Positions 18,625 to 63,341 of a stretch of 64,000 nt of DNA are shown piece after piece (the first letter of the stretch is position 1; every line of letters starts with the position of its first letter). The notes beneath the pieces were generated by a model. The model was not told the origin of the DNA. It did no database searches and worked only from the letters and a program-made list of their open reading frames with translations. Source of the stretch: an uncultured Candidatus Saccharibacteria bacterium (GTDB lineage Bacteria; Patescibacteriota; Minisyncoccia; Phycocordibacterales; PALSA-1337). The position numbers were made by a program, and so were the translations under genes. The stretch covers positions 18,594 to 82,593 of the forward strand of contig CAYQFS010000003.1 in assembly GCA_964416985.1 (NCBI GenBank), read 5' to 3'.

Positions 18625-18625
18625 C

Positions 18626-19195: not shown

Positions 19196-19197
19196 TC

Positions 19198-19533: not shown

Positions 19534-19560
19534 GGGATATTTCTGGTATATTCTTACTAC

Positions 19561-20092: not shown

Positions 20093-20117
20093 TTAATCTT
20101 TACTCAAGTAAAACAAA

Positions 20118-20142
20118 AAAGTGCCTTGCTGGCGCTTTTTTG
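20118..20142 (+). terminator. Rho-independent terminator after the 19739 gene
   Basis: aagtgccttgctggcgctt hairpin followed by tttttg. Confidence 0.45.
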
Positions 20143-20161
20143 TTGATAAGATATTTTTCTG

Positions 20162-20234
20162 TGCGCCCTAAGAGACTTGAACTCCTGACCTTCCCCGTGT
20201 AAAGGGGCTGCTCTACCAACTGAGCTAAGGGCGC
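20162..20234 (-). tRNA. tRNA-Val (anticodon UAC)
   Basis: Reverse complement gcgccct ta gctc agttggta gagc a gcccc uuUACac gggga aggtc aggag ttcaagt ctctt agggcgc a. No CCA. Confidence 0.8.
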
Positions 20235-20258
20235 ATATGTATGCTAGACTAACGTAAA

Positions 20259-21032
20259 ATGGATAAATTATCAAGAAAAATAAGCAAAAATATTGAGATT
20301 CTCTACGAAGATCCTGATATTGTGGCGGTCAACAAGCCGGCTGGTCTTGTCGTGCACTCTGATGGAAGAACCGATGAACCCGCGCTCACCGACTGGGTTA
20401 TCGAACACTATCCAAGGACAAAGAATGTTGGTGAAGCTCTCACAGACAAAGAAGGGAATGCAATTCCTCGACCAGGAATTGTTCATCGTCTTGATCGGGG
20501 AACTTCCGGAGTGATTCTCGTTGCAAAAACAAAAAAGGGTCATACACATCTCAAAGAGCAATTTCAAAATAGAACTCTTTCAAAAAAATATATTGCATTT
20601 GTTCATGGTGATATGAAAGACACGTATGGAATTATCAATCGCCCCATCGGAAAAAGTCCGAGCGATTTCCGAAGATTTTCTGCAACTCGAGGGGCGAAGG
20701 GGGAGATGCGGGAAGCCGAGACGTGGTGGACGATGTTTGCCTTTAAGTCCGGTTTCTCACTTGTCGAAGCCGAGCCAAAGACAGGTAGGACGCACCAGAT
20801 TCGAGTGCACTTTAAAGCCATCAATCATCCTGTTGTTTCCGATCCTCTCTATGGTGCGGGGAAGCCTCAGGCACTCGGTTTTGCACGAACTGCCCTCCAT
20901 GCAGCATCTATCACCTTTATCAATTGTAAGGGTAAGGAGGTGACCGTCAAAGCTCCGCTCCCAAAAGACTTTCTCGACGCGTTTGAGGAGCTTGGCATTG
21001 CTGATATTGCTAAAAAGAAGGGCTTGTGTTAG
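20259..21032 (+). CDS. RluA-family pseudouridine synthase
   Basis: Catalytic motif [16 protein letters not shown], and downstream GRTHQIRVH; 257 aa. Confidence 0.85.
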
Positions 21033-21046
21033 ATTTATCCCCACGT

Positions 21047-21478
21047 ATGGCAACAAACAAGGGTATTATTTCAACAGTAGATACAGCTGATCGAAAGGCA
21101 ATGAGTCTTCGTTCTGGCGACAATGTCCGCGTATGGCAAAAGGTTAAGGAAAAGGACAAGACACGACTCCAGGCTTTTGAAGGTCTCGTCCTCTCTCGAA
21201 AGCACGGCACAGAAGCTGGTGCCACTTTTACTGTGCGAAAAGTAATGGATGGTGTTGGTGTTGAAAAGATTTTCCCTCTCTACTCTCCAATGATCGACAA
21301 GATCGAGGTTCTCCGACGATCAAAGGTTCGACGAGCAAAGCTCTACTTCGTTCGTGAGAAGGCCACAAAGGAAATTCGACGCCAGATGCGCCGAATGCTT
21401 GCTCTCGACCCTGGACAGAATACTGATACAAAGATTGCAGCTCCTGCAGAAGCGAAGAAAGAAGAAGTCGCGGCGTAA
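21047..21478 (+). CDS. rplS: 50S ribosomal protein L19 with lysine/alanine-rich C-terminal extension
   Basis: [31 protein letters not shown]...FTVRKV...[13 protein letters not shown] is the canonical bL19 core. Start at the ATG at 21047. Confidence 0.9.
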
Positions 21479-21524
21479 TTTTGAGTTGAAAATAAAGGAT
21501 ATTTTAGGTATAGTTCCTTCTAAT

Positions 21525-21608
21525 GCGCAGATGGCGAAACTGGTAGACGCACTACCTTGAGGTGGTAGCGCCCTCACGGGCTTGGAGGTTCGAGTCCTCT
21601 TCTGCGCA
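21525..21608 (+). tRNA. tRNA-Leu (anticodon GAG), long variable arm
   Basis: gcgcaga tg gcg aaactggtag acgc a ctacc uuGAGgu ggtag cgccctcacgggcttg gaggt tcgagtc ctctt ctgcgc a. Confidence 0.8.
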
Positions 21609-21618
21609 CATTTTGAAG

Positions 21619-22695
21619 ATGAACATTAAAAAAGATCATCATGTTAGATTACTCCTTCTCTGTTGTTTTGTTTTTGTAGTGTTTGTTGGTATTGATTGGG
21701 CGATTGTTTTAATTAAATATAAGAGCGAGCCGAAGAATCCTCCTATTTTAGGTTATGTCCCTCAATTCGTTCTCCTCTCCTTTGATGGCTCAAAGGCTGT
21801 TTCGATGTGGAAGGAGACAAGAAGTTTTGAAAGGGAAATGAACAAGGACAAAAAGATTCTCAACTTCACCTATTTCATAAACGCCGCCTACTTCATTACC
21901 CCAGACAAAGCCAACCTCTACCAAGCACCAGGTCATCCTCGAGGTGAGAGTAATATTGGTTTTTCTGAAGATCTCGATAATCTCCGCGCTCGGATCGAGC
22001 AGGTGAATGTCGCTGTTGCTGACGGAGACGAAATTGCATCTCACACCGCCGGGCATTTTTGGGGAGGTACATGGTCAAAAGAGGACTGGCAAAAGGAGTT
22101 TGTTTCGTTTGATGATCTCCTCTTTGGTATAGCTCGTCATTATCCAGATACTACTCTACCAACCCTTCATCTCGACCCAAAAGATATCATTGGCTTCCGA
22201 GCGCCAGCTCTTTCGATAAATTCGTCACTTTATTCTGTTCTTGGCGAGCGTCATTTTCTCTATGATTCAAGTGAAATCTCTCAAGGTAAAAATGATATCT
22301 GGCCAACTAAGGACGAGAAGGGTATTTGGCATATTCCTCTTGGTATCGTTTTTCTCGATCGTGGTGCGAGTCCTGTCGTAGCTATGGATTACAGTATTCG
22401 TGAACATGTGCATTCTCTCAGCGCCACTGATTTTAGGAAGGGAACTCCCGAATGGAAAGCGACCTATGACGATGTCCTTGGTTCCTATCTCCGCTACTTT
22501 GAAAATAATTATAAAGGCACCCGTGCCCCGGTTCTCATTGGCCACCATTTTGAAGCATGGGACGACGATCTCTATTTTGAAGTCATGAAGGCGTTTGCGC
22601 GAGAAGTCTGCAGTAAGCCGGAGGTGCGATGCGGAACATTTCGAGATCTTGTCTTGTATATGAATGAATATGGGGTGCCGCTCGTCAAGAAGTAG
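21619..22695 (+). CDS. Polysaccharide deacetylase-family protein (NodB homology domain) with N-terminal TM anchor
   Basis: SFDGSK (Asp-Asp-type metal site variant), HT.GHFWG histidine motif, and overall CE4 layout. Start at the ATG at 21619, downstream of the tRNA. Confidence 0.6.
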   Translation: MNIKKDHHVRLLLLCCFVFVVFVGIDWAIVLIKYKSEPKNPPILGYVPQFVLLSFDGSKAVSMWKETRSFEREMNKDKKILNFTYFINAAYFITPDKANLYQAPGHPRGESNIGFSEDLDNLRARIEQVNVAVADGDEIASHTAGHFWGGTWSKEDWQKEFVSFDDLLFGIARHYPDTTLPTLHLDPKDIIGFRAPALSINSSLYSVLGERHFLYDSSEISQGKNDIWPTKDEKGIWHIPLGIVFLDRGASPVVAMDYSIREHVHSLSATDFRKGTPEWKATYDDVLGSYLRYFENNYKGTRAPVLIGHHFEAWDDDLYFEVMKAFAREVCSKPEVRCGTFRDLVLYMNEYGVPLVKK

Positions 22696-22738
22696 AAGTT
22701 GTGCTATAAATTGAAGGTTCTCGTGTGTGTTTGCATAT

Positions 22739-22810
22739 GGTGGCTATGGTGTAATGGTAACACTGGAGCTTGTGGAGCTCTCAACTCGGGTCCGATTCCC
22801 GATAGTCACC
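22739..22810 (+). tRNA. tRNA-His (anticodon GUG) with genomically encoded G-1
   Basis: g|gtggcta tg gtgt aatggta acac t ggagc uuGUGga gctcc tcaac tcggg tccgatt cccga tagtcac c. The extra 5' G pairs with the discriminator C. Confidence 0.8.
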
Positions 22811-22845
22811 CATTTAGAGATTTTCCTTAAATATGAAGCAGGTCA

Positions 22846-43951: not shown

Positions 43952-45124
43952 ATGAAAGACATTCAAATCAAAAAACTTATCGAAGCTGAAAAGAAGCGCC
44001 AAAAGAGTGTCGTGAATCTCATTGCGTCCGAAAACTACGTCTCAAAGGATGTTCTCGAGGCCCTTGGCTCTGAACTTACAAATAAATACGCAGAAGGTTA
44101 TGCTGGCAAGCGTTATTATGGTGGGAATCATATTGTTGATAAAATTGAGACACTTGCGATCGAGCGAGCCCTCAAGCTTTTTGGACTTTCTACAGAAACA
44201 TGGCATGTGAACGTCCAGCCTCTGTCGGGCTCTCCTGCAAATCTCGCAGTGTATGCTGCTCTTGTTCCATCAGGAGCAAAGATCATGGGAATGTCTCTCG
44301 ACCAAGGAGGACACCTCACCCATGGCCACAAAGTTTCTGTTACAGGAAAATTCTGGATGCAGATTCCGTACGGAGTAAACAAACAAACCGAAACACTTGA
44401 CTACAATGAACTAAAAGAAATTGCTCTTCGTGAAAAGCCAGCGATCATCGTCGGGGGATACACGGCGTATCCTCGAGTCGTCGATTTCAAGAAACTTCGT
44501 GAAGTTGCAGATGAGTCAGGAGCTCTTCTCATGATCGACATGTCGCATTTCGCTGGTCTTGTGGCAGGAAAGCAGTACCCATCTCCGTTTGAATATGCAG
44601 ATATTGTCACAACGACAGTTCACAAGACTCTCCGTGGCCCACGAAGCGCAATTATTTTCTCAAAGAAGGACGAAAGAGAACTTGGGAAGAAAATTGATCG
44701 CGCGGTGTTTCCTGGACTTCAGGGAGGTCCTCACTTGAATCAGATTGCAGCAGTTGCCGTTGCGCTCAAGGAGGCCTCGACTCCTGCTTTCAAAAAATAT
44801 GCACTTCAGGTAAAGAAAAATGCAAAGGTTCTCGCAGATGAACTTGCAAAAAAAGGATGGAAAATAATTTCTGGAGGAACAGACAGTCATCTTGTACTCA
44901 TTGATACATGGATGGGCGGAAAGGGAATTTCAGGCAAGGAGGCTGGAGACAGACTTGAAAAAGAGGGAATTATTGTAAATAAAAATGCGGTGCCATTTGA
45001 TACTCGGCCACCAATGGATCCTTCAGGTATTCGTCTCGGAACTGCTGCCGAGACTACTCGAGGAAAGAAAGAAAAGGACATAAAAAAAATCGCCGAGCGA
45101 ATTGATGCGATCTTGAGGGGATAA
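43952..45124 (+). CDS. glyA: Serine hydroxymethyltransferase
   Basis: NLIASENYVS..., YAEGYAGKRYYGG, and PLP-lysine TTTVHKTLRGPR. Confidence 0.9.
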   Translation: MKDIQIKKLIEAEKKRQKSVVNLIASENYVSKDVLEALGSELTNKYAEGYAGKRYYGGNHIVDKIETLAIERALKLFGLSTETWHVNVQPLSGSPANLAVYAALVPSGAKIMGMSLDQGGHLTHGHKVSVTGKFWMQIPYGVNKQTETLDYNELKEIALREKPAIIVGGYTAYPRVVDFKKLREVADESGALLMIDMSHFAGLVAGKQYPSPFEYADIVTTTVHKTLRGPRSAIIFSKKDERELGKKIDRAVFPGLQGGPHLNQIAAVAVALKEASTPAFKKYALQVKKNAKVLADELAKKGWKIISGGTDSHLVLIDTWMGGKGISGKEAGDRLEKEGIIVNKNAVPFDTRPPMDPSGIRLGTAAETTRGKKEKDIKKIAERIDAILRG

Positions 45125-45340: not shown

Positions 45341-47053
45341 GTGGTGAAACATACTATTAAAGAAAAGCTCATTCTGAGCCTTCGGACGGCCGCAGAAAAG
45401 GCAGGAATTACCGATCCAAAGGTGCACCTCGAACACCCTGAGGATATTTTTCATGGGGATTACGCTACAAACCTCGCCCTGGCGTACTCAAAAGCACTAA
45501 AGACTAGCCCAAAAATCCTTGCCGAAAAGATTCTTGAAGAATTTAAAAAAGATTTGCCGAACGAAGTAGAATCAACAAGTATTGCTGGTCCTGGGTTTAT
45601 AAATATAAAACTAAAAGACAGCGTTTTCATCGAGAACGTCCTCACTATTGGTAGCGACTATGGAAAGGGAAATCAGGATATGGGAAGAAAGGTAATGGTT
45701 GAGTACACTGATCCCAATCCATTCAAAATTTTTCATATCGGTCACCTCATGGCAAACGCTATTGGGGAATCTCTTTCAAGGATAATTGAATTTTCAGGAG
45801 CGAAGGTTATTCGAGCCAATTATTTTGGTGACGTAGGACTTCATGTGGCAAAAACCATGTGGGGTATTTTGAATACTAAAGCTGATTTTCCTGATGAGTC
45901 AGAACCGCTTGTTTCGAGGATAGAATTTCTAGGAAAAATGTACGTTACCGGATCAAATGCTGAAGGCGAAAAGGAAATAAAGGAAATTGCAGCAATTAAC
46001 AAGAAGATTTTTGAGAAATCAGACGCAGAAATAAATGAGTTCTATGATCTTGGAAGAAAATGGAGCCTCGAATATTTCGAAACCATTTACAAAAAGTTGG
46101 GAACGAAATTTGATGAGTATTTTCCTGAAAGTTCTGTCGCTGGCGATGGGGTAAAAATTGTTCAGGAATTTCTTAAAAAAGGCATATTCGAGACAAGCGA
46201 AGGTGCCACCATTTTCCCGGGAGAAAAATATGGAGTTCATACCCGCGTTTTCATTAACTCTCAAGGACTTCCAACATACGAAGCAAAGGAACTCGGCCTC
46301 ACGAAGAAAAAGTTTGAGCTCTATCCTGACCTCTCAGAATCGGTCGTCGTGACTGCAAACGAGCAGAGTGATTATTTTAAAGTTCTTATACGGGCTATTG
46401 GTGCAATTTATCCTGAAATTGCCTCAAAAATGAAGCACCTGAGTCATGGGATTCTGCGGCCTTCAACTGGAAAAATGTCTTCTCGAAAGGGAAATGTTGT
46501 TTCAGCTGAGGAATTATTGAATGAATTCCAAACTCTTGTTCTCGAGAAAATGAAGGATCGTGAATGGAAAGGAAATGAAAAAGAAATGGTCGCAGAGATG
46601 GTCGCCATTGCTGCTCTCAAGTACGTTGTACTCCGCCAAGCAATCGGAGGCGATATTATATATGACAAGGAAAAAATAGTTTCATTTGAAGGGGACTCGG
46701 GTCCATATCTCCAGTATGCGGCCGTTCGCGCTGAGGCAGTTGTAAGAAAAGCTCATGATGTCGGAATTTCTGAAAAAGTTTCTTCAAAGCCGACAGAAGC
46801 TACACTACTCGAAAGAATGCTCGCTCGTTTTCCTGAAACCATTGAGCGCTCTCGCATCGAATACGCCCCTCATCACATCGTGACCTATCTCATTGAGCTT
46901 TCTTCTGCTTTCAATTCCTACTATGCCGTCAATAAAATAATTGATGAAAAAGATTCTCTTTCCTCATATCGAGTGGCTCTGACAAAAGCTTTTGTCTCGG
47001 TGATGAAAAATGGTCTTTGGGTTTTGGGTATCAAAGTGCCGGAGAGGATGTAA
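45341..47053 (+). CDS. argS: Arginyl-tRNA synthetase
   Basis: Class I HIGH motif (FHIGHLMANAIGE), ArgRS N-terminal add-1 domain, and KMSK-variant region (GKMSSRKGN). Confidence 0.9.
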   Translation: MVKHTIKEKLILSLRTAAEKAGITDPKVHLEHPEDIFHGDYATNLALAYSKALKTSPKILAEKILEEFKKDLPNEVESTSIAGPGFINIKLKDSVFIENVLTIGSDYGKGNQDMGRKVMVEYTDPNPFKIFHIGHLMANAIGESLSRIIEFSGAKVIRANYFGDVGLHVAKTMWGILNTKADFPDESEPLVSRIEFLGKMYVTGSNAEGEKEIKEIAAINKKIFEKSDAEINEFYDLGRKWSLEYFETIYKKLGTKFDEYFPESSVAGDGVKIVQEFLKKGIFETSEGATIFPGEKYGVHTRVFINSQGLPTYEAKELGLTKKKFELYPDLSESVVVTANEQSDYFKVLIRAIGAIYPEIASKMKHLSHGILRPSTGKMSSRKGNVVSAEELLNEFQTLVLEKMKDREWKGNEKEMVAEMVAIAALKYVVLRQAIGGDIIYDKEKIVSFEGDSGPYLQYAAVRAEAVVRKAHDVGISEKVSSKPTEATLLERMLARFPETIERSRIEYAPHHIVTYLIELSSAFNSYYAVNKIIDEKDSLSSYRVALTKAFVSVMKNGLWVLGIKVPERM

Positions 47054-47105
47054 AATATGTCTATTTTCATCTTTAGTATGTGATATCCGGTGTGTATCAG
47101 ATTGT

Positions 47106-47135
47106 ATTAGATAGTATTAGATAGTATTAGATAGG
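47106..47135. repeat. Tandem repeat (tattagatag)x3
   Basis: Seen directly: gtattagatagtattagatagtattagatagg. Confidence 0.6.
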
Positions 47136-47173
47136 GCAATAATCCAGTGTTCGCTGCATTTTATGGCATGCTA

Positions 47174-47203
47174 TTGACAAATTGGGTAGAGTTGGTGTAT
47201 AAT
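47174..47203 (+). promoter_or_regulatory. Near-consensus sigma70 promoter (TTGACA-18-TATAAT) upstream of the DGR target gene, followed by a long 5'-UTR hairpin (about 47232-47290)
   Basis: ttgacaaattgggtagagttggtgtataat. Downstream, an imperfect inverted repeat cttcgctgcaacag...ctccgttgtggcgaag encloses a perfect hairpin gccttaa-at-ttaaggc. Confidence 0.55.
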
Positions 47204-47333
47204 AGTAATGTAGTTCTTTGATTTGCCAGTATCTTCGCTGCAACAGAAAGCGCCTTAAATTAAGGCTTTCTCCGTTGTGGCGAAGAGCCCAACAAACTAA
47301 ACTTGTGTCCGAAAGGATACTAACCAAGAAAGG

Positions 47334-48056
47334 GTGACAACGATGAAAAATCCATCGATTGCATCAGACAACGAAGTCAGTGAAGGCCAAATCGAAACCT
47401 GTGTGACCCTAGTCACCGATGCTACGCGCAAAGGGACAGGCACAGCGCTTCGCGAACTCGCCAAGAACGGTGTTCTCACCAAAAAGAATATTGAGCGGGT
47501 GCGGGCGCGCGGCAACGAAGTGGTTGCTGAGATTACGAGAATCGTAAAGGAGAAGTTTGCCGAAATTGCCGAGAATATCGCCGGCATCGTCAAGCTCATC
47601 TCCGGCGCGGAAATTCTCGAACTCGACGAGACGGACGGGAAGGCAACCATTGCGAAAGCGAAGGATGCCTTTCCCGGCTGGATCGATCCCGACTTCAAGG
47701 AATACGGTTGCGATGTGAAGTCGGAGCCGACCAAGAAGGCACAGGTTTCCGTCCATGAGATGATCAAGGACGGGACATTCGCCCAGATCTTTAATGGCAT
47801 GGGCGATGACCTCAATAGTCTTTGTCTTACACAGCCGCAGATCATCCAATTCGTGGAGAAACACCACAAGTGGCTCCGCACGGATGGATATGCAACCTTT
47901 TTCTTATTCAAGGTTGGCGAAGAGTTCTTCGTTGCGGACGTGGGCTTCCACGTCGGGCGTCTCGAGGTCTACGTGCGCCGCTTCTCGAACGACTTCGTCT
48001 GGCGCGCCGAGGACCGTCATCGCATTGTAGTCCCGCAACTGGCACTTGCAAATTAG
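47334..48056 (+). CDS. DGR target (variable) protein; GC-rich; VR at the C-terminus
   Basis: The 3' approximately 117 bp is a mutated copy of the downstream template repeat (see VR/TR features). About 55% GC, against about 40% for neighbours. No recognisable C-type-lectin GGSW motif. Confidence 0.75.
   Translation: MTTMKNPSIASDNEVSEGQIETCVTLVTDATRKGTGTALRELAKNGVLTKKNIERVRARGNEVVAEITRIVKEKFAEIAENIAGIVKLISGAEILELDETDGKATIAKAKDAFPGWIDPDFKEYGCDVKSEPTKKAQVSVHEMIKDGTFAQIFNGMGDDLNSLCLTQPQIIQFVEKHHKWLRTDGYATFFLFKVGEEFFVADVGFHVGRLEVYVRRFSNDFVWRAEDRHRIVVPQLALAN
47925..48041 (+). repeat. DGR variable region (VR), including the 3' invariant IMH-like segment cgtcatcgcattgtagtcccg
   Basis: Aligns base for base with TR 48366..48482. 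All 20 mismatches in the alignment fall at positions that are A in the TR. Confidence 0.85.
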
Positions 48057-48057
48057 T

Positions 48058-48080
48058 CCTGAGCCTTTGGCTCTCAGTCC
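48058..48080 (+). other. GC hairpin (gagcc-ttt-ggctc) just downstream of VR/stop; candidate DGR target-recognition stem-loop
   Basis: Inverted repeat ctgagcctttggctctcag, seen directly. Position relative to the VR matches known DGR hairpin/cruciform elements. Confidence 0.45.
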
Positions 48081-48365
48081 CTCTGACCCTTGTCAAAATT
48101 TATTTTGGCAAATCAGGGGGATTTTTGTATACTGGAAAGGCACGCATGAATGTACGGTGGCTATGGCTCCCGTGCCACGCTTGTGAAAAAATACGTTCGA
48201 GAATTCTGCCGCCCGCCAGCTGGCGGGTTGCAGAAGAGTGGATGTATTTTTATCTAAACAAAAAATAATCAGTTGGTGTAGTGGACTGGAGGACTTCAAT
48301 GTCCCGAATACTATTCAATCTGTCCTGATTGGGCGGATGGTGTACTGGATGGTTCGTTGCACATT

Positions 48366-48482
48366 ATCTTCGTTGCGAACGTGAACTTCAACGACGGGCA
48401 TCTCAAGGTCAACATGAACCGCTTCTCGAACGACAACGTCTGGAACGCCGAGAACCGTCATCGCATTGTAGTCCCGAAACTG
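48366..48482 (+). repeat. DGR template repeat (TR), non-coding, rich in AAC codons in the VR frame
   Basis: atcttcgttgcgAACgtgAACttcAACgacgggcatctcAAggtcAACatgAACcgcttctcgAACgacAACgtctggAACgccgagAACcgtcatcgcattgtagtcccg. 21-nt exact match to the VR at the 3' end. Confidence 0.85.
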
Positions 48483-48497
48483 TCATTTCTCTCATCA

Positions 48498-48866
48498 TTA
48501 TTTGGTGAGAGTTTTGTTGAGTATTGATTTAGCAGTGGGACTTTGGAGGCCTTTGCGCCATCCACCAAGCATTCGCCCTATCTCTTCTAGCTTTTCCGAG
48601 AGTTCTGTATATTTGTCAGTCGGAATGAGCTTGCTCTCCCAGGCTAGCTGATAAAAGAATTTAAGAGTGTCTACCTTCGTTATGGTCCGGCCGAGCATAA
48701 CAGTCTTGGCTTCTGGTGGCAGATAAATGCAAGAGAAACTGAATTCCAAAGTATCAAGAAATAAGTCTTCAATCTTCTGACCAATACCGAGACGTTCAAC
48801 GCGCGGAAAGTTCCTATGAATGGCTAACCAAAATTGGTATGCTTCCTTTTCCTTCAAAATCACCAC
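48498..48866 (-). CDS. avd: Avd-like accessory variability determinant (four-helix-bundle / 23S rRNA intervening-sequence protein family), GTG start, opposite strand to TR/RT
   Basis: 122 aa, with the ...FP..E..G...Q.... pattern; the C-terminal EEIGRMLGGWRKGL parallels Bordetella bAvd EVGRILGSWIARV. Located between the TR and the RT. Confidence 0.7.
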   Translation of the reverse strand: MVILKEKEAYQFWLAIHRNFPRVERLGIGQKIEDLFLDTLEFSFSCIYLPPEAKTVMLGRTITKVDTLKFFYQLAWESKLIPTDKYTELSEKLEEIGRMLGGWRKGLQSPTAKSILNKTLTK

Positions 48867-48877
48867 TGGAGAATTGC

Positions 48878-48887
48878 GGGGGGGGGG
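48878..48887. repeat. Homopolymeric G10 tract between the divergent avd start and the RT start (C10 in the avd 5'-UTR)
   Basis: gaattgcggggggggggtcgtc, seen directly. It lies inside the upstream extension of the RT ORF (which would read GGG) and 12 nt upstream of the avd GTG. Confidence 0.9.
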
Positions 48888-48910
48888 TCGTCATAGTCAT
48901 TTTAATTTTT

Positions 48911-49900
48911 GTGAAAAATAAAGGGGTTGCGTACAACCATATCATATCTCTCAAAAATATCCACGAAGCGTGGCGTGAATTTGTCTCTGGTAAAAAATAT
49001 AAAACCGATGTGGCAGAATTCCTGCTCAAACTCTCGGAGAATACTTATAAGCTTCACATTGATCTAAAAAATAAAATATATGTCCACGGACCGTACGAAG
49101 CCTTCGCGGTTAATGACCCAAAGCCGCGCAGTATCCATAAAGCGAGCGTGCGGGACCGTTTACTCCACCATGCTCTCTATCGCCAACTCTACCCTTATTT
49201 TGATCAGAAATTTATTCACGATTCCTATTCTTGCCGTGACTTCAAGGGGACGCATCGGGCATTGGAGCGCTTTATGCAATTTTCTTGCAAGGTTTCAAAG
49301 AGCAATAAACGCACTTGTTGGGTATTGAAATGTGATGTTCGTAAGTTCTTTGCTTCGGTGGATCATTCAGTTCTCATGACGATACTTAAAAAGCATATTT
49401 CTGATCCTGATATTATCAATCTTGTCGGTGGGGTAGTGGAGAGTTTTAAAAGTACTGGTCCGGGAAAGGGTTTGCCACTCGGTAATCTTACTTCGCAACT
49501 TCTGGTGAATGTTTATATGAATGAATTTGATCAATACGTAAAGCATATTCTCAAACAGAAGTTTTATATTCGCTATGCTGATGATTTTGTGATTATGCAT
49601 CATGACCGCATTACATTACTAGAAGTGTTACCGAAAATTCATGCTTTTCTTGGATCGGTCCTTAAACTACAGCTTCATCCCGATAAGGTTTCTATCGAGA
49701 CAGTTTCTTCTGGCATTGATTTTCTTGGCTGGATCCATTTTCCTAATCACCGTGTGTTGCGGACCACCACAAAAAGAAGAATGTTCAAGAATTTAAAAAT
49801 GACAGAGACAAAACGTGAGACACTTCAATCGTATCTTGGACTTTTAAAACACGGCAATACCCATAAGTTACAAAACTCAATAAATAAATTTAAGACATAA
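48911..49900 (+). CDS. DGR-type reverse transcriptase (track ORF 48839..49900; probable start GTG at 48911, downstream of the G-tract)
   Basis: RT motifs 1-7, including NIHEAWREF, the DGR-type GKGLPLGNLTSQLLVNVYMNEFD and IRYADDFVI (YxDD), around 330-353 aa. No maturase or endonuclease domain, so not group II. Confidence 0.9.
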   Translation: MKNKGVAYNHIISLKNIHEAWREFVSGKKYKTDVAEFLLKLSENTYKLHIDLKNKIYVHGPYEAFAVNDPKPRSIHKASVRDRLLHHALYRQLYPYFDQKFIHDSYSCRDFKGTHRALERFMQFSCKVSKSNKRTCWVLKCDVRKFFASVDHSVLMTILKKHISDPDIINLVGGVVESFKSTGPGKGLPLGNLTSQLLVNVYMNEFDQYVKHILKQKFYIRYADDFVIMHHDRITLLEVLPKIHAFLGSVLKLQLHPDKVSIETVSSGIDFLGWIHFPNHRVLRTTTKRRMFKNLKMTETKRETLQSYLGLLKHGNTHKLQNSINKFKT

Positions 49901-49953
49901 AAAATTATCCTCTGGAACTTCCTTTTTATTTTTTTAGGAATATAATTTTCTTT

Positions 49954-50781
49954 ATGCCACAAGAAATTACTATCACTGCTCCCCATAAAGATTTCGAATC
50001 AATCAAAAAGATTGATGAGAATGGCGTGGAATACTGGACAGCAAGGGAGCTTATGCCAATACTTGGGTATTCAAAGTGGCAGAATTTTGAAATAGTCATA
50101 AAAAAGGCTCAAGAAGCTTGCGTCAATAGCCGCCAGTTTCCCCAGGATCATTTTACTGAAGCCAGTAAATTGATCAAAATGGCTAAAGATGCTGTGCGTG
50201 AAATAAACGACTATAACCTTGATAGGTATGCCTGTTATTTAATTGCCCAAAACGGAGACTCTACTAAGAAAGAAATTGCCCTTGCCCAAACATATTTTGC
50301 GGTACAAACGCGTAACCAGGAGATGTTTAATAAACTTTCTGATGATGAGAAAAGAATACAAAGACGAGAGGAAGTAACTGACAGAAATAAACATCTTTTC
50401 AGTACGGCCAAACTTGCAGGCGTCTCAAATTTTGGAAAATTCAATGATGCAGGGTATAAAGGCCTCTATACCATGCCTCTTTCTGAAATTGAGAAGAGAA
50501 AGAAGGTAAAGAAAGGAGAATTACTCGATCGTGCAGGAAGTGTAGAACTTGGAGCCAATCTTTTTAGAATTACCCAGACAGAAGACAAAATCAAGAGAGA
50601 AAATATAAAAGGAGATACAGAAGCACAAAGAACACACTTTGATGTTGGAAAGAAAGTTCGTCAGACAATGAAAGAACTTGGCGGGGAAATGCCAGAAAAT
50701 CTCAAACCAGAAAGGCATATAAAGGAAATTAGGAAGAATAACAGATTCCTCAAAAAGAAATCACAAGCGAGAATAAAATAG
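49954..50781 (+). CDS. dinD: DinD-like protein (DNA-damage-inducible protein D family)
   Basis: GVEYWTARELMPILGYSKWQNFEIVIKKAQEAC and LDRYACYLIAQNGD closely parallel E. coli DinD segments (..WSARDL..LGY..W.NF...I.KA; LTRYACYLIVQN). Confidence 0.6.
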   Translation: MPQEITITAPHKDFESIKKIDENGVEYWTARELMPILGYSKWQNFEIVIKKAQEACVNSRQFPQDHFTEASKLIKMAKDAVREINDYNLDRYACYLIAQNGDSTKKEIALAQTYFAVQTRNQEMFNKLSDDEKRIQRREEVTDRNKHLFSTAKLAGVSNFGKFNDAGYKGLYTMPLSEIEKRKKVKKGELLDRAGSVELGANLFRITQTEDKIKRENIKGDTEAQRTHFDVGKKVRQTMKELGGEMPENLKPERHIKEIRKNNRFLKKKSQARIK

Positions 50782-50796
50782 TATTTTTAGCCAAAA

Positions 50797-53700
50797 ATGC
50801 TAAAATGGCATTTACGTATGGAAAAGAGCAAGCAAGCCCAAACCGAAGAGAAAATACTGGCTTTTTGGGAAGAAAAAAAGATATTCAAGAAAACCCTCGA
50901 CAAGGAATTTCCGAAGGGCGATTTTATCTTTTATGATGGACCACCATTTGCAACAGGAGAGCCACACTATGGTCACGTCGTCCCGGGAACAATCAAAGAC
51001 ATAATTCCTCGTTATAAAACGATGAAAGGCTATCGCGTCCGCAGGCGATGGGGTTGGGACTGTCATGGATTGCCGGTAGAAAATCTCATCGAAAAAGAGC
51101 TCGGTCTTAAATCAAAAAAAGATATCCTTGACTACGGTATTGGAAAGTTTAATGCAAAGGCCCAAGAAAGCGTCATGCGGTATGCTGATGACTGGAGAAG
51201 GATCATTCCTCGCCTCGGTCGTTTTGTCGACATGGAGGATGACTATCGAACAATGGATACACCATACACCGAGTCAGTGTGGTGGGCTTTTTCTGAACTC
51301 TATAAAAAGGGATTAATTTATGAAGGATTCAAGTCAATGAATCTTTGCCCTCGCTGTGAGACAACACTTTCGAACTTTGAGGTAAGTCAGGGGTACAAGG
51401 ATATAACGGATATTTCGGTTTTTGTTACATTTGAAATAGTCGATGAGCCGGGAACTTTTCTTCTCGCATGGACGACAACCCCGTGGACTCTTCCAGGAAA
51501 TGTAGCGCTCGCAGTGAATCCTTCAATTCAATATTCAAAAATAAAAATACATAATCAGCAGTTATACGTAGCAACACCACGACTTTCTGCTGTGAAAGTA
51601 GAATATACAGTTGTCTCTGAAATTTCAGGAAAAGATCTTATCGGAAAATCATACAAACCTGTTTTCCCTTACTATTTTTCTGATCAAAAATTAAAAAATA
51701 AAGAAAATGGTTGGAAAGTTTATGGTGCCGATTTTGTAACAACGGAAGACGGAACAGGGATCGTTCATATTGCCCCAGCTTTTGGAGCCGATGATTACGA
51801 ACTTTCACTGAAGCACAATCTGCCGTTTGTTCAGCATGTTGGAACGAATGGCCAGTTCAAGGCGGAGGTTACGGATTTTGCTGGTCAGGATGTAAAACCA
51901 AAAGATTCTCCAGAAGAAAAGGACAAGCACCAAAAAGCTGATATTGAGATTATCAAATATCTTGCAGCCCACGGAACTCTTTTTGCAAAAGAAAAACTTG
52001 TACACTCATATCCGCACTGCTGGAGATGTGATACTCCACTTCTCAATTACGCAGCCTCATCATGGTTTGTAAAGGTTACTGATCTGAAGGATAAGCTCGT
52101 CAAAGAAAATAAGAAAGTGGGGTGGATTCCTCCTGAAGTTGGTGAAGGGCGGTTTGGAAATTGGCTCATGGGTGCTCGGGACTGGGCAATTTCACGTTCA
52201 CGTTTTTGGGGAGCGCCTCTGCCGGTCTGGAAAGAAGAAACAACAGGGGAATGTCATGTTCTCTCGTCGATTGCCGATCTCAAAAAATACAGTCATGCAA
52301 GAAATACCTACTACGTGAGCCGACACGGAGAAGCGGAAAATAATGTAAAGATGATCATCAGTTCTCTCAAGGAAAATCCGCATCATTTGACCGACCTTGG
52401 AAAAAAGCAGGCGAAGGAAGCGGGGCAATGGCTCAAGGATAAACATATTGATCTCATTATCACATCTCCATTTGTTAGAACAAAGGAGACGGCTGAAATC
52501 ATTGCTCAGCAGATTGGATTTGATAAAAATAAGATTGTTTTTGACGAAAGACTTCGGGAGCTTGGGGCGGGAATCTGGAACGGGAAAAACTTCCATGATT
52601 TTGTAGCGCATCTCAAAGAAGAGGATCGCTTCGAAATTGCTCCAGAGGGAGGTGAACAGTATGCTGATATAAAAAAGCGTATGGGGGACATCCTCTATGA
52701 CCTCGAGCAGAAGCATAGTGGCAAAAATATTCTTCTCGTTTCTCATGATACGCCACTTTTTCTTCTTGAGACAGTCGCCCAAGGCCTCAATCGAAAGCAG
52801 TCGATAGAACTCCGAGGTCACAAGGATCATTTTAATGAAAATGCAAAGCCTCGAAAGCTCGAATTTCATCCCTTGCCGCATAACGCTGAGTACGAAGCCG
52901 ATCTCCATCGGCCGTTCATTGACGAAATTCCTCTCATCTCCGAAAAGGGAAACAAGCTCGTGCGAATTCCCGAAGTTTTTGACTGCTGGTTTGAGTCGGG
53001 TTCAATGCCGTTTGGAGAAGCTCATTATCCATTCCAAAAATGCGATTTCAATCCTAAGCCGGGTCCATTTACAAAAATTCTCGGAAAAACTAAAGGCTAT
53101 CCTGCTGATTTTATTGCAGAAGGACTTGACCAGACTCGTGGCTGGTTTTACTCGATGATGGTCCTTGGGGTCGCTCTTTTTGGCCGATCTCCTTACAAAA
53201 AAGTTGTGGTCAATGGTCTCGTCCTTGCTGAAGATGGTCGCAAGATGTCGAAGCGTGAGAAGAATTATCCCGACCTCATGCTTATTGTAAATAAATATGG
53301 AGCTGATGCTCTCCGCTACTTCCTCATGTCATCTCCGGTCGTTCATGCTCAAGATTTTTGTTTTTCTGAGAGGGGAGTTGATGAGGTAATGAAAAAGCAC
53401 ATTGGTCGACTCAACAACGTCGTGACATTCTATGAAATGTATGCGAGTGAAGCAACCGATCTCACGATCACAAGCACCGATCCTCTCGATCTTTGGATTG
53501 TTTCTCGATTAGCAGAGCTAGCCTTAGAAGTCACACATGGTCTTGAAAAATATGAAATCGACCGAGCATCACGTCCTTTTGCAGAATTTATTGACGACCT
53601 TTCAACGTGGTATATTCGCCGTTCACGAGATCGATTTAAGAGTGAAAATGTGGAAGACAAAAATCGAGCCCTCGCTACGACTCGAAAAGTCCTTCTCGAT

Positions 53701-54297
53701 CTCTCAAAACTTCTGGCACCAATTATGCCGTTTCTTGCCGAGGATATGTACCAGCATGTGAAAGGTGAAAAGGAGAGTGTGCATCTCGAGCCGTGGCCTG
53801 AATTTAAAAGGGCTGATGCAAACATAATTGTAGACATGAAAGAGGTTCGCCGTGTCGCGTCCCTTGGCCTCGAAGCCCGCATGAAGGCAAAGATAAATGT
53901 CCGCCAGCCCCTCGCAAAGCTTTCAGTTAAATCTCCAATTCCAAAAAATCTCGCAGACATTATTAAAGATGAGGTAAATGTAAAAGAAGTTGTGACAGAT
54001 GCAGCGCTTTCGGAAGAAGTAGTACTTGATACTATCCTTACGCCTGAGCTCAGAGAAGAAGGGAATGTCCGTGAACTTCTTCGCGCAATTCAGGATCTTC
54101 GAAAAGAAAAAGGACTGACGATACAGGATCGTGCAATTTTGACAATTGATACCGATCGAAAAACTCAGGAACTTATTACAAAAAACAAAGAAGGCCTTTC
54201 ATCTGCGACGTTGCTCAAAGAAATAAAGTTTGGAAATTTGGAAGGTGAGGTAAAAATGGTGGGAGAACTCAGCTTAAAAATAGATATCGGGAAATAA
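50797..54297 (+). CDS. ileS: Isoleucyl-tRNA synthetase, type 2 (eukaryote-like), carrying an inserted ~170-aa histidine-phosphatase (PGAM-like) domain
   Basis: GPPFATGEPHYGHV (HIGH) and RKMSKREKNYPD (KMSKS), plus the CP1 editing region. The insert at about 52300-52810 is YYVSRHGEAENN...ITSPFVRTKETAEI...LLVSHDTPLF (RHGE + SHD catalytic motifs). Confidence 0.9.
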   Translation: MLKWHLRMEKSKQAQTEEKILAFWEEKKIFKKTLDKEFPKGDFIFYDGPPFATGEPHYGHVVPGTIKDIIPRYKTMKGYRVRRRWGWDCHGLPVENLIEKELGLKSKKDILDYGIGKFNAKAQESVMRYADDWRRIIPRLGRFVDMEDDYRTMDTPYTESVWWAFSELYKKGLIYEGFKSMNLCPRCETTLSNFEVSQGYKDITDISVFVTFEIVDEPGTFLLAWTTTPWTLPGNVALAVNPSIQYSKIKIHNQQLYVATPRLSAVKVEYTVVSEISGKDLIGKSYKPVFPYYFSDQKLKNKENGWKVYGADFVTTEDGTGIVHIAPAFGADDYELSLKHNLPFVQHVGTNGQFKAEVTDFAGQDVKPKDSPEEKDKHQKADIEIIKYLAAHGTLFAKEKLVHSYPHCWRCDTPLLNYAASSWFVKVTDLKDKLVKENKKVGWIPPEVGEGRFGNWLMGARDWAISRSRFWGAPLPVWKEETTGECHVLSSIADLKKYSHARNTYYVSRHGEAENNVKMIISSLKENPHHLTDLGKKQAKEAGQWLKDKHIDLIITSPFVRTKETAEIIAQQIGFDKNKIVFDERLRELGAGIWNGKNFHDFVAHLKEEDRFEIAPEGGEQYADIKKRMGDILYDLEQKHSGKNILLVSHDTPLFLLETVAQGLNRKQSIELRGHKDHFNENAKPRKLEFHPLPHNAEYEADLHRPFIDEIPLISEKGNKLVRIPEVFDCWFESGSMPFGEAHYPFQKCDFNPKPGPFTKILGKTKGYPADFIAEGLDQTRGWFYSMMVLGVALFGRSPYKKVVVNGLVLAEDGRKMSKREKNYPDLMLIVNKYGADALRYFLMSSPVVHAQDFCFSERGVDEVMKKHIGRLNNVVTFYEMYASEATDLTITSTDPLDLWIVSRLAELALEVTHGLEKYEIDRASRPFAEFIDDLSTWYIRRSRDRFKSENVEDKNRALATTRKVLLDLSKLLAPIMPFLAEDMYQHVKGEKESVHLEPWPEFKRADANIIVDMKEVRRVASLGLEARMKAKINVRQPLAKLSVKSPIPKNLADIIKDEVNVKEVVTDAALSEEVVLDTILTPELREEGNVRELLRAIQDLRKEKGLTIQDRAILTIDTDRKTQELITKNKEGLSSATLLKEIKFGNLEGEVKMVGELSLKIDIGK

Positions 54298-54318: not shown

Positions 54319-54876
54319 ATGCACCACATCTACACAACTCCAGCCTTCGTTGTGAGCAGTCTTCCTCGAGGGGAAGCGGGGAAGTCCCTTCTTCTTTTTA
54401 CTCGTGACTTTGGAATGATATGGGCAACTGCGCAGGGAATCAGGCTCTCTCAGTCAAAACTTCGCCACCACATCCAGGACTATTCTTTTTCGTATGTTTC
54501 AATTGTGCGGGGAAAAGAAATGTGGAGACTGACCGGCGCAGGCGAGCTTCAGGAAAAAATAAAACCAAGCAAACTCTATGTTCGCATTTTGAATGTATTA
54601 AAAAGGCTTCTGACGGGGGAAGAAAAAAATGAGAAACTTTTTGAAATAATCGAGACAAGCTCGAAGGCCACTTACGAAGAAAAAGATACTGAAATCATTG
54701 AGTGTATTATAATGCTTAGAATCTTGAATGCACTTGGATATATTTCAAATAAAAAAGAATTCGATAAGTTTTTAATTGACAACGCACTTTCACCCGATTT
54801 GGTTGAAGAAATGAAAAAAGTGAAGCTCCTCGTGGTTAAGGAAATCAACTCAGCTCTCAAGGAGAGTCAGCTCTAG
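54319..54876 (+). CDS. recO: DNA repair protein RecO (short form lacking zinc finger)
   Basis: N-terminal OB fold TPAFVVSSLPRGEAGKSLLLFTRDFGMIWATAQGIRLSQSKL parallels the RecO N-domain. Confidence 0.55.
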   Translation: MHHIYTTPAFVVSSLPRGEAGKSLLLFTRDFGMIWATAQGIRLSQSKLRHHIQDYSFSYVSIVRGKEMWRLTGAGELQEKIKPSKLYVRILNVLKRLLTGEEKNEKLFEIIETSSKATYEEKDTEIIECIIMLRILNALGYISNKKEFDKFLIDNALSPDLVEEMKKVKLLVVKEINSALKESQL

Positions 54877-61868: not shown

Positions 61869-61889
61869 TAGTATATACTTGAGCGTACT

Positions 61890-63341
61890 ATGGCAAAAAA
61901 CGGAGAATTGAAGAATTTTTACATAACCACTACATTGCCCTATGTAAACGCAGAGGCTCACATTGGTCATGCCCTCGAATTTATCCGTGCCGACGTCATT
62001 GCCCGTGAGAAAAAGCTCAAAGGCAAGGATGTATTTTTCGGAACTGGGACGGACGAACATGGGGCAAAAATAGAGAGGAACGCAGCATCTCTCAATATAA
62101 AGCCTCAGGAATTTGTCGACAAAGTCTCGAAAACCTTTAGAGATCTTATGAATCAGTTGGGAATTTCTCCCGATGTTCATTTTCATCGCACAACCGACCC
62201 AAAGCATATTGCAGCTGCTCAGGAATTTTGGAAGATCTGCAAGAAAAACGGATACATTTACAAAAAGAATTACAAAATAAAATATTGCGTTGGTTGCGAA
62301 CTTGAAAAGACGGAGTCAGAACTCATTGATGGAAAATGTCCGATTCACCCATCTCTTCAGATCGAGGAAATTGATGAAGAAAACTATTTCTTCAAATTTA
62401 GCGAATTCCAGAAGCCACTTCTTGAATTTTATGATGAAAATCTTGAGTTTGTCGTGCCATCGTTTAGATTTAATGAAATAAAAGCCTTTGTAAAAAATGG
62501 TCTCAATGACTTTAGTATTTCTCGTTTGAAAAGCAAAATGTCATGGGGAGTTGAGGTTCCTGATGATCCACACCATGTCATGTATGTATGGTTCGACGCT
62601 CTCGTGAGCTACATTTCAAATATCGGCTGGCCGCAGGACAAGGAATCATTTGAGAGATGGTGGATTTCTACGGGTGGCGTAGTGCAGTATTGTGGAAAGG
62701 ATAATCTTCGTCAGCAGTCGGCGATGTGGCAGTCGATGCTTATGGCCGCAGGACTTCCAAATTCAAAGCAGATTGTAATCAATGGCTTTGTGACTGGTGA
62801 AGGTGGGATAAAGATGAGCAAATCGATCGGCAATGTAGTCGATCCTCTCGAAATTATAAAAGAATATGGAACTGATGCCCTTCGCTACTTTGTTCTTCGT
62901 GAAGTGCATCCTTTTGAAGATAGCCCATTTACTCTTGAAAAATTTAAAGAATCCTACAACGCCCATCTTGCAAATGGTCTCGGAAACCTCGTCAGTCGTG
63001 TCATCAAGATGGCTGAGACAAATAATGTGACACTTGATCCAAAATGTACCCCGACTGATGATCCTCGTCATGCTGCTTTTTATGCTAGCTATGAAATTAA
63101 CAAAGTTTGTGACGACATCTGGCTTCGCATCCAGCATGCCGACAAATTTATCCAGGACAATCAGCCTTTCAAGGTTATAAAAACAGATGAAGCGAAAGGA
63201 AGGGAACAAATTGCATATCTACTCACACAGATTGCGGAAGTGGCGCATCTTTTGAGACCAATTTTGCCTCAGACTTCAGAGAAGATTTCGCAGGCGCTCA
63301 GGGATAATAAGATTGGGGAACCTCTTTTCATGAGGAAGTAA
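61890..63341 (+). CDS. metG: Methionyl-tRNA synthetase (short form without the C-terminal tRNA-binding domain)
   Basis: HIGH-variant AHIGHALE, zinc knuckle CVGCELEK...CPIH, and KMSKS (GIKMSKSIGN). Confidence 0.9.
   Translation: MAKNGELKNFYITTTLPYVNAEAHIGHALEFIRADVIAREKKLKGKDVFFGTGTDEHGAKIERNAASLNIKPQEFVDKVSKTFRDLMNQLGISPDVHFHRTTDPKHIAAAQEFWKICKKNGYIYKKNYKIKYCVGCELEKTESELIDGKCPIHPSLQIEEIDEENYFFKFSEFQKPLLEFYDENLEFVVPSFRFNEIKAFVKNGLNDFSISRLKSKMSWGVEVPDDPHHVMYVWFDALVSYISNIGWPQDKESFERWWISTGGVVQYCGKDNLRQQSAMWQSMLMAAGLPNSKQIVINGFVTGEGGIKMSKSIGNVVDPLEIIKEYGTDALRYFVLREVHPFEDSPFTLEKFKESYNAHLANGLGNLVSRVIKMAETNNVTLDPKCTPTDDPRHAAFYASYEINKVCDDIWLRIQHADKFIQDNQPFKVIKTDEAKGREQIAYLLTQIAEVAHLLRPILPQTSEKISQALRDNKIGEPLFMRK

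Follow-up and report, generated by a model that had tools for sequence, protein, structure and literature searches.

A histidine phosphatase domain within the isoleucyl-tRNA synthetase of Patescibacteria and its likely source in a neighbouring operon gene

In a 64,000-nucleotide stretch of DNA from an uncultured Candidatus Saccharibacteria bacterium (contig CAYQFS010000003.1 of assembly GCA_964416985.1, positions 18,594 to 82,593 of the forward strand; hereafter the window), the ileS gene encodes an isoleucyl-tRNA synthetase (IleRS) with a foreign enzyme in its interior. Judged by its sequence, the inserted segment is a complete branch-1 histidine phosphatase domain with the full catalytic set of that family, and it is probably active. 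The fusion is real, old and common, a clade-wide trait of Paceibacteria-type Patescibacteria. The domain is related to a free-standing phosphatase gene of ~190 codons (proteins of 186-197 aa), called hisP in this report, which in other lineages lies between the gene of arginyl-tRNA synthetase (ArgRS), argS, and ileS. Internalisation of hisP into IleRS appears to have taken place more than once.

The entire protein is encoded by one uninterrupted open reading frame (ORF; Table 1). Translation probably starts at M8 (nt 50818), judging by the closest homologues, which are 1159 aa long and have their first residue at the corresponding position. A preliminary description, made from the letters of the window, had presented the protein as a single polypeptide in which a type-2 IleRS carries a branch-1 histidine phosphatase resembling phosphoglycerate mutase (PGAM). 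Both statements proved correct, as all motifs quoted there lie in the same frame and the profile scan proposed there was positive. Pfam His_Phos_1 (PF00300) matches aa 506-667 with positions 2-164 of its 194 profile positions, at an E-value (E) of 8.3e-34 and with 117.4 bits compared with a cutoff of 21.7, and all four catalytic residues are present. In 121 fused proteins, R509, H510, G511, N516, R561, E588 and H650 are all invariant. Sampled pairs of fused proteins share on average 56% identity in the insert, 70% in the core and 47% in the C-terminal domain, values that place the insert under ordinary purifying selection.

When the insert was modelled alone with AlphaFold2 (AF2) from 14 homologues, the predicted local distance difference test score (pLDDT) was 92.2 and the predicted template-modelling score (pTM) 0.90. 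In a model of the full-length protein the insert reached a pLDDT of 88-97, and the editing domain was predicted with confidence as well. A Foldseek comparison with the Protein Data Bank yielded 304 matches at E<=1e-3, the best 50 of which were all histidine phosphatases or PGAM-fold enzymes. The folds at the top are short, phosphatase-type branch-1 enzymes (template-modelling score 0.70-0.78, root-mean-square deviation 2.2-2.8 A, 23-28% identity), among them PspA (4ij6), GpgP (4qih), PhoE (1h2e), the riboflavin-pathway HFP and CobC (6nru). True cofactor-dependent phosphoglycerate mutases (dPGMs) follow below the short phosphatases, with lower target coverage, and the scores of the dPGM models are below their cutoffs (dPGM_arch 86.8 vs 225 bits, GpmB 62.7 vs 261, PRK01295 42.5 vs 316). 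The same holds for CobC (TIGR03162, 74.9 vs 162.9 bits), PspA (NF045917, 56.8 vs 350) and SixA (TIGR00249, 44.7 vs 74.5). The NCBIfam histidine-phosphatase model with the best score for the insert is NF005567, with 87.8 bits (aa 499-658) relative to a cutoff of 326.

The site of insertion was determined by alignment with solved structures. In the alignment with 8c8u, IleRS2 of Priestia megaterium (E 9e-211), residues 11-499 of the query correspond to residues 9-478 of the chain and residues 691-1117 to residues 477-902. The insert therefore comprises 191 aa at a single point, with the IleRS residues all retained, which confirms the extra block of the preliminary description but makes it longer than the ~170 residues estimated there. 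Residues 12-496 of yeast IleRS align with residues 15-503 of the query and residues 20-499 of Candida IleRS with residues 16-499. Since these limits fall within the published boundaries of connective peptide 3 (CP3), 459-526 in yeast and 473-534 in Candida (PMC7955072, PMC7191050), the site is placed inside CP3, a peripheral and structurally variable subdomain, outside the Rossmann core proper. The topology of CP3 differs among IleRSs (PMC7191050). The earlier placement inside the catalytic core thus holds in so far as the domain separates two stretches of the catalytic tRNA-synt_1 domain, but it does not hold for the Rossmann core. Directly before CP3, the CP2-3 linker (ARDWxxSRxRYWG) lines the pocket for the 3' end of the tRNA (PMC7955072). 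The insertion point follows immediately after this linker, which we count in favour of a tRNA-centred role.

At the downstream junction the consensus is HPLPHNxEYExDLHRP, with P694, H695, N696, E700, H704 and R705 conserved to at least 97%, and the conserved junction residues also include N503, Y505, F690 and P692. This conservation suggests a fixed packing of the insert against CP3. The guanine-cytosine content is flat (0.43-0.47) across both junctions and the 120 best homologues, from independent assemblies, all have the same architecture, so that a frameshift or a chimeric assembly join is excluded. The CP3 zinc ligands CxxC...CxC, found in Thermus IleRS (PMC7191050) and kept in most unfused IleRSs of the Candidate Phyla Radiation (CPR), are absent from the window protein (aa 476-492 and 708-726; nt 52207-52290 and 52921-52980). 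Replacement of the zinc knuckle by the phosphatase was considered and rejected: the ligands have been lost in 32 of 72 fused IleRSs, the subclade of the window, whereas 39 of the 72 retain them, and the loss therefore postdates the insertion.

The synthetase part of the fused protein looks functional. It matches TIGR00392, the NCBIfam ileS equivalog model, with 870.1 bits compared with a cutoff of 621.4, and Pfam recognises tRNA-synt_1 (E 6e-136) on either side of His_Phos_1, then Anticodon_1 and DUF5915. The N-terminal part contains the first Rossmann half, the CP core, the CP1 editing domain, CP2, the CP2-3 linker and the first half of CP3; the C-terminal part contains the rest of CP3, the second Rossmann half, the anticodon-binding domain and the DUF5915 C-terminal domain. 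The class I signatures HYGH (aa 57-60) and KMSKR (aa 816-820) and the CP1 editing motifs TTTPWTLP (aa 226-233) and GTGIVHIAPAFGADD (aa 319-333) are invariant across 56 homologues. The closest solved structures are 8c8u, human 9w01, Candida 6ldk, yeast 7d5c and Thermus 1ile (E 1e-191 to 1e-211), whereas type-1 structures score far weaker (Staphylococcus aureus 1ffy 3e-89, 8c9e 3.5e-87). The C-terminal DUF5915 is the type-2 domain, and by these comparisons the window IleRS is clearly of type 2 (eukaryote/archaeal-like). The models of the mupirocin-resistance enzymes MupB and MupA were not reached (748 and 721 bits, respectively, vs 1900). Relative to 8c8u, an additional segment of ~12 aa follows the HYPF motif (aa 746-772, FQKCDFNPKPGPFTKILGKTKGYPADF, window 53032-53112). 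It is lineage-specific, and its loop houses a whole His_Phos_1 domain in the homologues P0235, P0292 and P0174.

PF00300 is carried by all of the 120 best database homologues (57-89% identity, 1099-1281 aa), and those among them with a named source come from Patescibacteria, Parcubacteria or Paceibacterota. A pattern scan of one genome per GTDB species detected the fusion in at least 127 species of Patescibacteria, and each of the 80 loci that were retrieved had the phosphatase inside an ORF with IleRS motifs, ~1120-1290 aa long unless the contig ended. Named lineages with the fusion are Zambryski-, Yonath-, Taylor-, Nomura-, Lloyd-, Kaiser-, Wildermuth- and Sungbacteria. The survey of orthologues proposed at the outset thus yielded the insert throughout, and the idea that the window protein might be unique had to be given up; what remains of it is that the literature searched contained no description of the fusion. 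The database names of the fused proteins, of which there are hundreds of examples, are 'isoleucyl-tRNA synthetase' or 'class I tRNA ligase family protein', and none of the source names mentions the phosphatase domain. The second name is given by the PGAP annotation of NCBI to P0015 (MEK7463660.1), P0116 (MFA6295201.1), P0005, P0025 and P0047.

The origin of the insert was traced by searches of two kinds. A word-indexed search with the insert alone gave only free-standing relatives, and the fused proteins were recovered by an exhaustive search of representatives, which returned 1427 representatives at E<=1e-10. The insert is 37-47% identical to the ten best free hisP hits and 39-42% identical to a tabulated set; 34 free hisP proteins that were aligned proved too diverse for pattern scanning. 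At loci L081, L082 and L085, the genes of the nearest free relatives follow argS and directly precede an ileS without insert (950-1000 aa). A scan of metagenome contigs centred on hisP revealed 75 free hisP genes. Among the 71 loci with enough sequence, 64 have ileS downstream, at a distance of <=200 nt in 59, and argS is upstream in 64 of 65 metagenome loci. Most free hisP genes lie within a few bases of both argS and ileS or overlap them, and often recO and the gene of a DUF11 protein are found downstream. In the fused GTDB loci, ArgRS is encoded upstream of ileS in 56 of 80 and RecO downstream in 63 of 80, RecO being downstream in most unfused loci too. The order argS - ileS - recO - DUF11 is kept in the fused loci and in the window, and a free hisP within 6 kb was found in none of the 80 fused loci. 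Free and internal copies thus complement each other, and the most parsimonious account is a transfer of hisP from its place in the operon into a loop of the downstream neighbour, the free copy having gone in the lineage of the window.

Locus L081 contains two tandem free hisP paralogues (7400-8008 and 8001-8594) upstream of an insert-free ileS, the second of which (P0122) has Glu in place of Asn516 and Asp in place of Glu588. A comparison of isoelectric points was discarded: the value is 9.3 for free hisP and 6.6 for the inserts, but in the unfused lineages ArgRS (9.1) and IleRS (8.5) are basic too. Lineage composition thus confounds the difference, which was therefore not used as evidence of RNA binding.

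Table 1. Positions of ileS, its parts and motifs, and the flanking operon genes in the window
Feature	Residues	Nucleotides	Strand	Remarks
argS (arginyl-tRNA synthetase)		45341-47053	+	Pfam Arg_tRNA_synt_N, tRNA-synt_1d, DALR_1
ileS, type-2 IleRS with internal phosphatase domain		50797-54297	+	uninterrupted ORF, 1166 aa from first ATG
IleRS N-terminal part	1-499	50797-52293	+	aligned to 8c8u residues 9-478
WGAPLPVW, CP2-3 linker	471-478	52207-52230	+	in frame
Branch-1 histidine phosphatase insert	500-690	52294-52866	+	absent from 8c8u at exactly that point
YYVSRHGEAENN	505-516	52309-52344	+	in frame
RHG motif: R509, nucleophilic H510, G511	509-511	52321-52329	+	invariant in 121 fused IleRSs
ITSPFVRTKETAE	555-567	52459-52497	+	in frame
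Second phosphate-binding arginine (within SPFVRTKET)	561	52477-52479	+	invariant
Glutamate, general acid/base	588	52558-52560	+	invariant
LLVSHDTPLF	646-655	52732-52761	+	in frame
Second catalytic histidine (within VSHD)	650	52744-52746	+	invariant
IleRS C-terminal part	691-1166	52867-54294	+	aligned to 8c8u residues 477-902
DLHRPFIDE	702-710	52900-52926	+	in frame
recO		54319-54876	+	Pfam RecO_N

Of 72 inserts placed in a tree of hisP domains, 67, that of the window among them, fall into a single clade, and the inserts of loci L164, L166, L153, L077 and L072 nest among free hisP genes. The insert of L164 and the free hisP of L168 are by eye ~75-80% identical (distance of 0.20 by neighbour-joining, NJ), whereas the IleRS cores of the two loci share only 50% identity. 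The NJ tree of IleRS implies at least seven changes between the fused and the unfused state, but the branches of its backbone are only 0.01-0.02 long. The case for recurrence is therefore based on the hisP tree and the nearest neighbours, and only 'more than one' event is claimed.

Some IleRSs carry additional copies of the domain or carry it elsewhere. Two copies are present in P0174 and P0233 (1419 aa), P0221, P0260 and P0292 and four in P0156. Alternative insertion sites are located after HYPF (query ~aa 745-770) and before the anticodon domain (~aa 860-900), and P0235 joins the six proteins just named as a variant with extra copies or another site. Copies within one protein are only 25-38% identical, yet R, H, R, E and H are kept in all full-length copies. 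A different residue takes the place of N516 in a single copy each of P0156 and P0246, the latter a two-domain protein of 410 aa in which an IleRS part was not detected.

The hisP family is joined to other enzymes as well. It is fused in frame to the C-terminus of ArgRS at L117 (3381-5567) and in P0285 (689 aa). In these two cases the argS and hisP frames coincide without an intervening stop; in most loci the two genes adjoin within a few bases or overlap. In four clusters (P0232, P0304-P0306) the partner is TsaC/Sua5, the threonylcarbamoyl-AMP synthase of t6A biosynthesis. One TsaC-HisP gene (L172, 1964-3292) adjoins genes of a CCA-adding enzyme with an HD domain, TGT, queuosine salvage and TruD. 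TsaC is encoded neither in the window nor at any of 160 argS-hisP-ileS loci (L001-L171 except L081-L091), and its fusion to the phosphatase is therefore no effect of adjacency at that locus. The best 150 matches include 100 proteins that are longer or match IleRS; 95 of these are IleRSs or IleRS fragments, and all larger hosts identified are translation or tRNA enzymes, namely IleRS, ArgRS and TsaC.

Domains of other families occur in related synthetases. The IleRS of L082 (8066-11515, 1149 aa) contains at aa 327-452 a NUDIX domain with an intact NUDIX box, located in the CP1 editing domain and not in CP3. Upstream of it are a free NUDIX gene (7548-8060) and a free hisP (6001-6561). That the NUDIX insert is a recent copy of the free NUDIX gene was rejected, the two being 29% identical over 41 aa. 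P0301, a truncated IleRS of 1066 aa, has His_Phos_1 at aa 680-854 and a GNAT acetyltransferase domain at aa 935-1063; in its editing region (aa 326-472) there is an in-frame REP-associated/IS200-like tyrosine transposase domain (NF047646, 81.3 bits vs 80).

Based on these observations we lean, if only slightly, towards a bifunctional enzyme in which a working type-2 IleRS is combined with an independent, hisP-derived phosphatase site that serves the tRNA-charging machinery and not central metabolism. This assignment is drawn from the repeated association of hisP with adenylate-forming, tRNA-centred enzymes, IleRS, ArgRS and TsaC. By the chemistry of the family, His510 would attack a terminal phosphoryl group held by Arg509, Arg561, Asn516 and His650, and the resulting phospho-histidine intermediate would be hydrolysed with Glu588 as acid/base. 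As to the substrate, two speculative candidates may be named. One is the inorganic pyrophosphate (PPi) released in adenylate formation, whose hydrolysis would pull activation forward; because IleRS, ArgRS and TsaC all release PPi in this step, it would be the most economical shared substrate. The other is a 2'- or 3'-(pyro)phosphate on the CCA end of the tRNA, the removal of which would restore chargeability. Pyrophosphorylation of the CCA end is known to block aminoacylation (10.1101/2021.04.30.441581; PMC11559606), and small alarmone hydrolases reverse it when it is caused by toxSAS toxins (10.1101/2021.04.30.441581). The preliminary description had proposed a moonlighting phosphatase acting on a nucleotide or on a tRNA phosphate, and this is a live hypothesis to which the gene context adds support. 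A bolder proposal, which we hold to be unlikely as it stands, is a built-in preparation and repair site that strips 2'/3'-phosphates or pyrophosphates left on the CCA end by nucleases or toxSAS, or hydrolyses PPi, the capture of several copies at several sites being adaptive. If it applied, Patescibacteria would possess synthetases with a third catalytic centre besides those of synthesis and editing, and the NUDIX and GNAT insertions of sister lineages would be parallel solutions.

Several findings weigh against a role in tRNA charging. The nearest folds are metabolic phosphatases of small molecules and not RNA or protein phosphatases, and since no curated NCBIfam subfamily model reaches its cutoff, the substrate class is not assignable by homology. 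The structural modelling proposed in the preliminary description was successful for the insert, but in the full-length AF2 model, with a pTM of 0.62, the Rossmann halves have a pLDDT of 36-60, and a distance between active sites is not readable from such a model. CP3 is a peripheral surface, and an active site inserted there may be oriented away from the tRNA. TsaC itself is not known to bind tRNA, which fits PPi better than a substrate at the tRNA end. In Patescibacteria TsaC is also fused to an Ogt C-domain (very commonly), TruB, GNAT, NUDIX and a DNA glycosylase; end-to-end fusions of housekeeping genes are so rampant that fusion or adjacency by itself is weak evidence for mechanistic coupling. 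A 2H cyclic phosphodiesterase is a further fusion partner of TsaC in these bacteria.

The last points lead to the alternative that most deserves attention, possible though in our judgement doubtful: the domain could be a hitch-hiking housekeeping phosphatase or short mutase of central or salvage metabolism, acting for instance on phosphoserine, phosphoglycerate or a nucleotide monophosphate, embedded, in streamlined CPR genomes, in a gene that is essential and constitutively expressed, only for co-expression and gene economy and mechanistically unrelated to charging. The metabolic character of the closest folds (PspA, GpgP, PhoE, CobC) and of the families with the best NCBIfam hits would be explained in this way, although the cutoffs of the metabolic subfamilies are all unmet. 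The many seemingly arbitrary fusions in CPR genomes, such as those of TsaC with the Ogt C-domain, a DNA glycosylase and TruB, and the variable, permissive nature of CP3 as a surface subdomain (PMC7191050) are also what such a passenger would require. Economy predicts end-to-end fusion, however, and neither repeated internal insertion at three or more loops of one protein nor the presence of two to four divergent, catalytically intact copies. Arguing against a metabolic passenger are also the larger hosts among the best 150 matches, all of them translation or tRNA enzymes (IleRS in 95 of 100, and in addition ArgRS and TsaC), and the TsaC-HisP gene within a cluster for tRNA maturation. The serine hydroxymethyltransferase gene just upstream of argS in the window is in keeping with a metabolic role, but this neighbourhood is not shared by the three free-hisP loci with listed genes (L081, L082, L085).

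Of much lower probability is a protective or anti-toxin module that reverses a phosphorylated lesion on IleRS or hydrolyses a phosphorylated or phosphoramidate mimic of the aminoacyl-adenylate, with NUDIX and GNAT as parallel detoxifiers. Kinase toxins of the HipA type modify class I synthetases by phosphorylation close to the KMSKS loop, and the insertion sites (aa 499/691, ~745-770 and ~860-900) flank KMSKS (aa 816-820) in the primary sequence. Other Patescibacteria IleRSs contain NUDIX (L082) or GNAT together with His_Phos_1 (P0301), an NCBIfam model exists for IleRS with a GNAT domain (NF040702), and multiple divergent copies would fit an arms race. Yet none of the inspected neighbourhoods contains a toxin or kinase gene, the operon is one of housekeeping genes (argS, ileS, recO), and those members of the superfamily that are protein phosphatases are not among the fold neighbours; moreover, defence genes are usually patchy, whereas the domain is clade-wide and strictly conserved. 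Still less can be said for a structural or scaffolding domain whose catalysis is irrelevant and which stabilises CP3 after loss of the zinc knuckle or bridges ArgRS and IleRS. We regard it as very improbable, even though the window's subclade (32 of 72 fused proteins) has lost the CxxC...CxC ligands, the highly conserved junction residues suggest rigid packing, hisP is flanked by argS and ileS and occurs fused to each of them, and CP3 of human IARS1 is a protein-protein surface that binds LARS1 (PMC13439101). A scaffold does not require catalytic residues that are invariant over 121 sequences and kept in every full-length copy of the multi-copy proteins despite 25-38% identity, and with 39 of 72 fused IleRSs keeping their zinc ligands the insertion is no replacement. 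An artefact (a chimeric assembly or a frameshifted gene pair) or a selfish, intein-like or mobile insertion without benefit to the host is hardly credible. The conserved H695-N696 after the insert superficially recalls the C-terminus of an intein, a reverse transcriptase gene and a DinD-like gene lie just upstream, and one homologue (P0301) has an in-frame transposase domain. Against these stand the continuous ORF of flat composition, an identical architecture in more than 200 independent assemblies, a donor that is a cellular operon gene and an active site under strong purifying selection, by which this explanation is already refuted. The selfish insertion that the preliminary description had considered finds no support in these data. 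An intein in particular was rejected, as Pfam gave no Hint, intein or homing-endonuclease hit and the residue after H695-N696 is variable and mostly non-nucleophilic (E is commonest with 31%; the window has A).

The surroundings of ileS in the window include a block of ~3.7 kb (47054-50796) between argS and ileS, the exact position of the free hisP in unfused lineages. It contains an unassigned ORF (47334-48056), a reverse transcriptase gene (48839-49900) and a homologue of the gene of DNA-damage-inducible protein D (DinD; 49954-50781, 322 bits vs 242). The reverse transcriptase is group-II-intron-like but below the cutoff of TIGR04416 (142 bits vs 300), and Rfam found no group II intron or retron RNA beside it. 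At the unfused loci L101 and L126, genes of very similar reverse transcriptases (E 1e-114 to 1e-119) precede argS, and hits beside a fused ileS occur at L052 (13 nt upstream) and L077 (~2 kb downstream). The serine hydroxymethyltransferase gene directly upstream of argS occupies positions 43952-45124. Seven tRNA genes (Lys, two Arg, Ser, Val, Leu, His) are located in the first third of the window (6216-22811), and a second class-I-synthetase-like ORF of ~489 aa near its end (61872-63338).

Few enzymes have been studied as thoroughly as aminoacyl-tRNA synthetases, and their added domains have been catalogued; here a complete enzyme of a different class is predicted inside IleRS over much of a major bacterial radiation. 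Comparative genomics displays both the state before the event, the argS-hisP-ileS operon, and the state after it, the internal domain. Should PPi, nucleotides or tRNA ends turn out to be its substrate, the phosphatase would be a new accessory activity of tRNA charging, which could help to explain how ultra-small symbionts maintain their tRNA pools. Were it a mere passenger, it would be an unusually clear natural case of the insertion of whole genes into permissive loops of an essential enzyme, of use to protein engineering and to the understanding of genome streamlining. For annotation the consequence is immediate, since both functions are under-annotated by the PGAP name 'class I tRNA ligase family protein'.

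Full-text literature searches did not reveal a published description of an aminoacyl-tRNA synthetase with a histidine phosphatase, and the word 'phosphatase' is absent from the main text of the AARS Online paper, including its table of domain superfamilies. Taken one by one, the parts of the protein belong to known families. Type-2 IleRSs such as 8c8u and 1ile are collinear with the window protein over aa 11-499 and 691-1117 and have the motifs, the editing domain and DUF5915 in common with it. The difference from 8c8u consists of the phosphatase in CP3 and the short segment after HYPF at aa 746-768, and Thermus IleRS differs in possessing the CP3 zinc ligands (PMC7191050), which have disappeared from the subclade of the window. 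That an IleRS may have an extra catalytic domain is already known: NF040702, 'isoleucine--tRNA ligase, N-acetyltransferase domain-containing', is a precedent for an additional small-molecule-modifying domain in a bacterial IleRS. The window protein is not a member of that family (334 bits vs a cutoff of 1999), and its added domain belongs to a different one. Histidine phosphatases are also joined to other proteins, among them a nucleic-acid enzyme in the bifunctional RNase H/acid phosphatase of the Rv2228c type (NF005567), a 2H phosphoesterase in Sts/UBASH3, and the TFIIIC subunit tau55. These fusions are end-to-end and concern unrelated partners and lineages, whereas the ileS insert is located inside another catalytic domain.

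In concept, the enzymes that heal tRNA 3' ends come close to the role considered here, since in both cases a phosphatase would act on behalf of an enzyme dependent on a free tRNA 3'-OH. In the bacterial CCA-adding enzyme, the HD domain is a 2',3'-cyclic phosphodiesterase/phosphatase; it is metal-dependent and has a different fold, whereas the phospho-histidine chemistry of the insert would be independent of metal and its contact with RNA is putative. The insert most closely resembles the short branch-1 phosphatases, PspA of Hydrogenobacter (4ij5/4ij6), PhoE/YhfR of Geobacillus (1h2e, 1ebb), mycobacterial GpgP (Rv2419c, 4pza/4qih) and the alpha-ribazole phosphatase CobC (6nru, 6e4b). It has the same fold, a length of ~190-210 aa, the RHG motif, second Arg, Glu and second His, and a short cap, and like them it is without the C-terminal tail of dPGMs. 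Those enzymes are free-standing and have known metabolic substrates, whereas the insert forms part of a tRNA synthetase, with free relatives that belong to an argS-ileS operon. What appears to be new, judged by the literature searched, is the histidine phosphatase in CP3 of IleRS, its traceable origin in an operon and its repeated capture.

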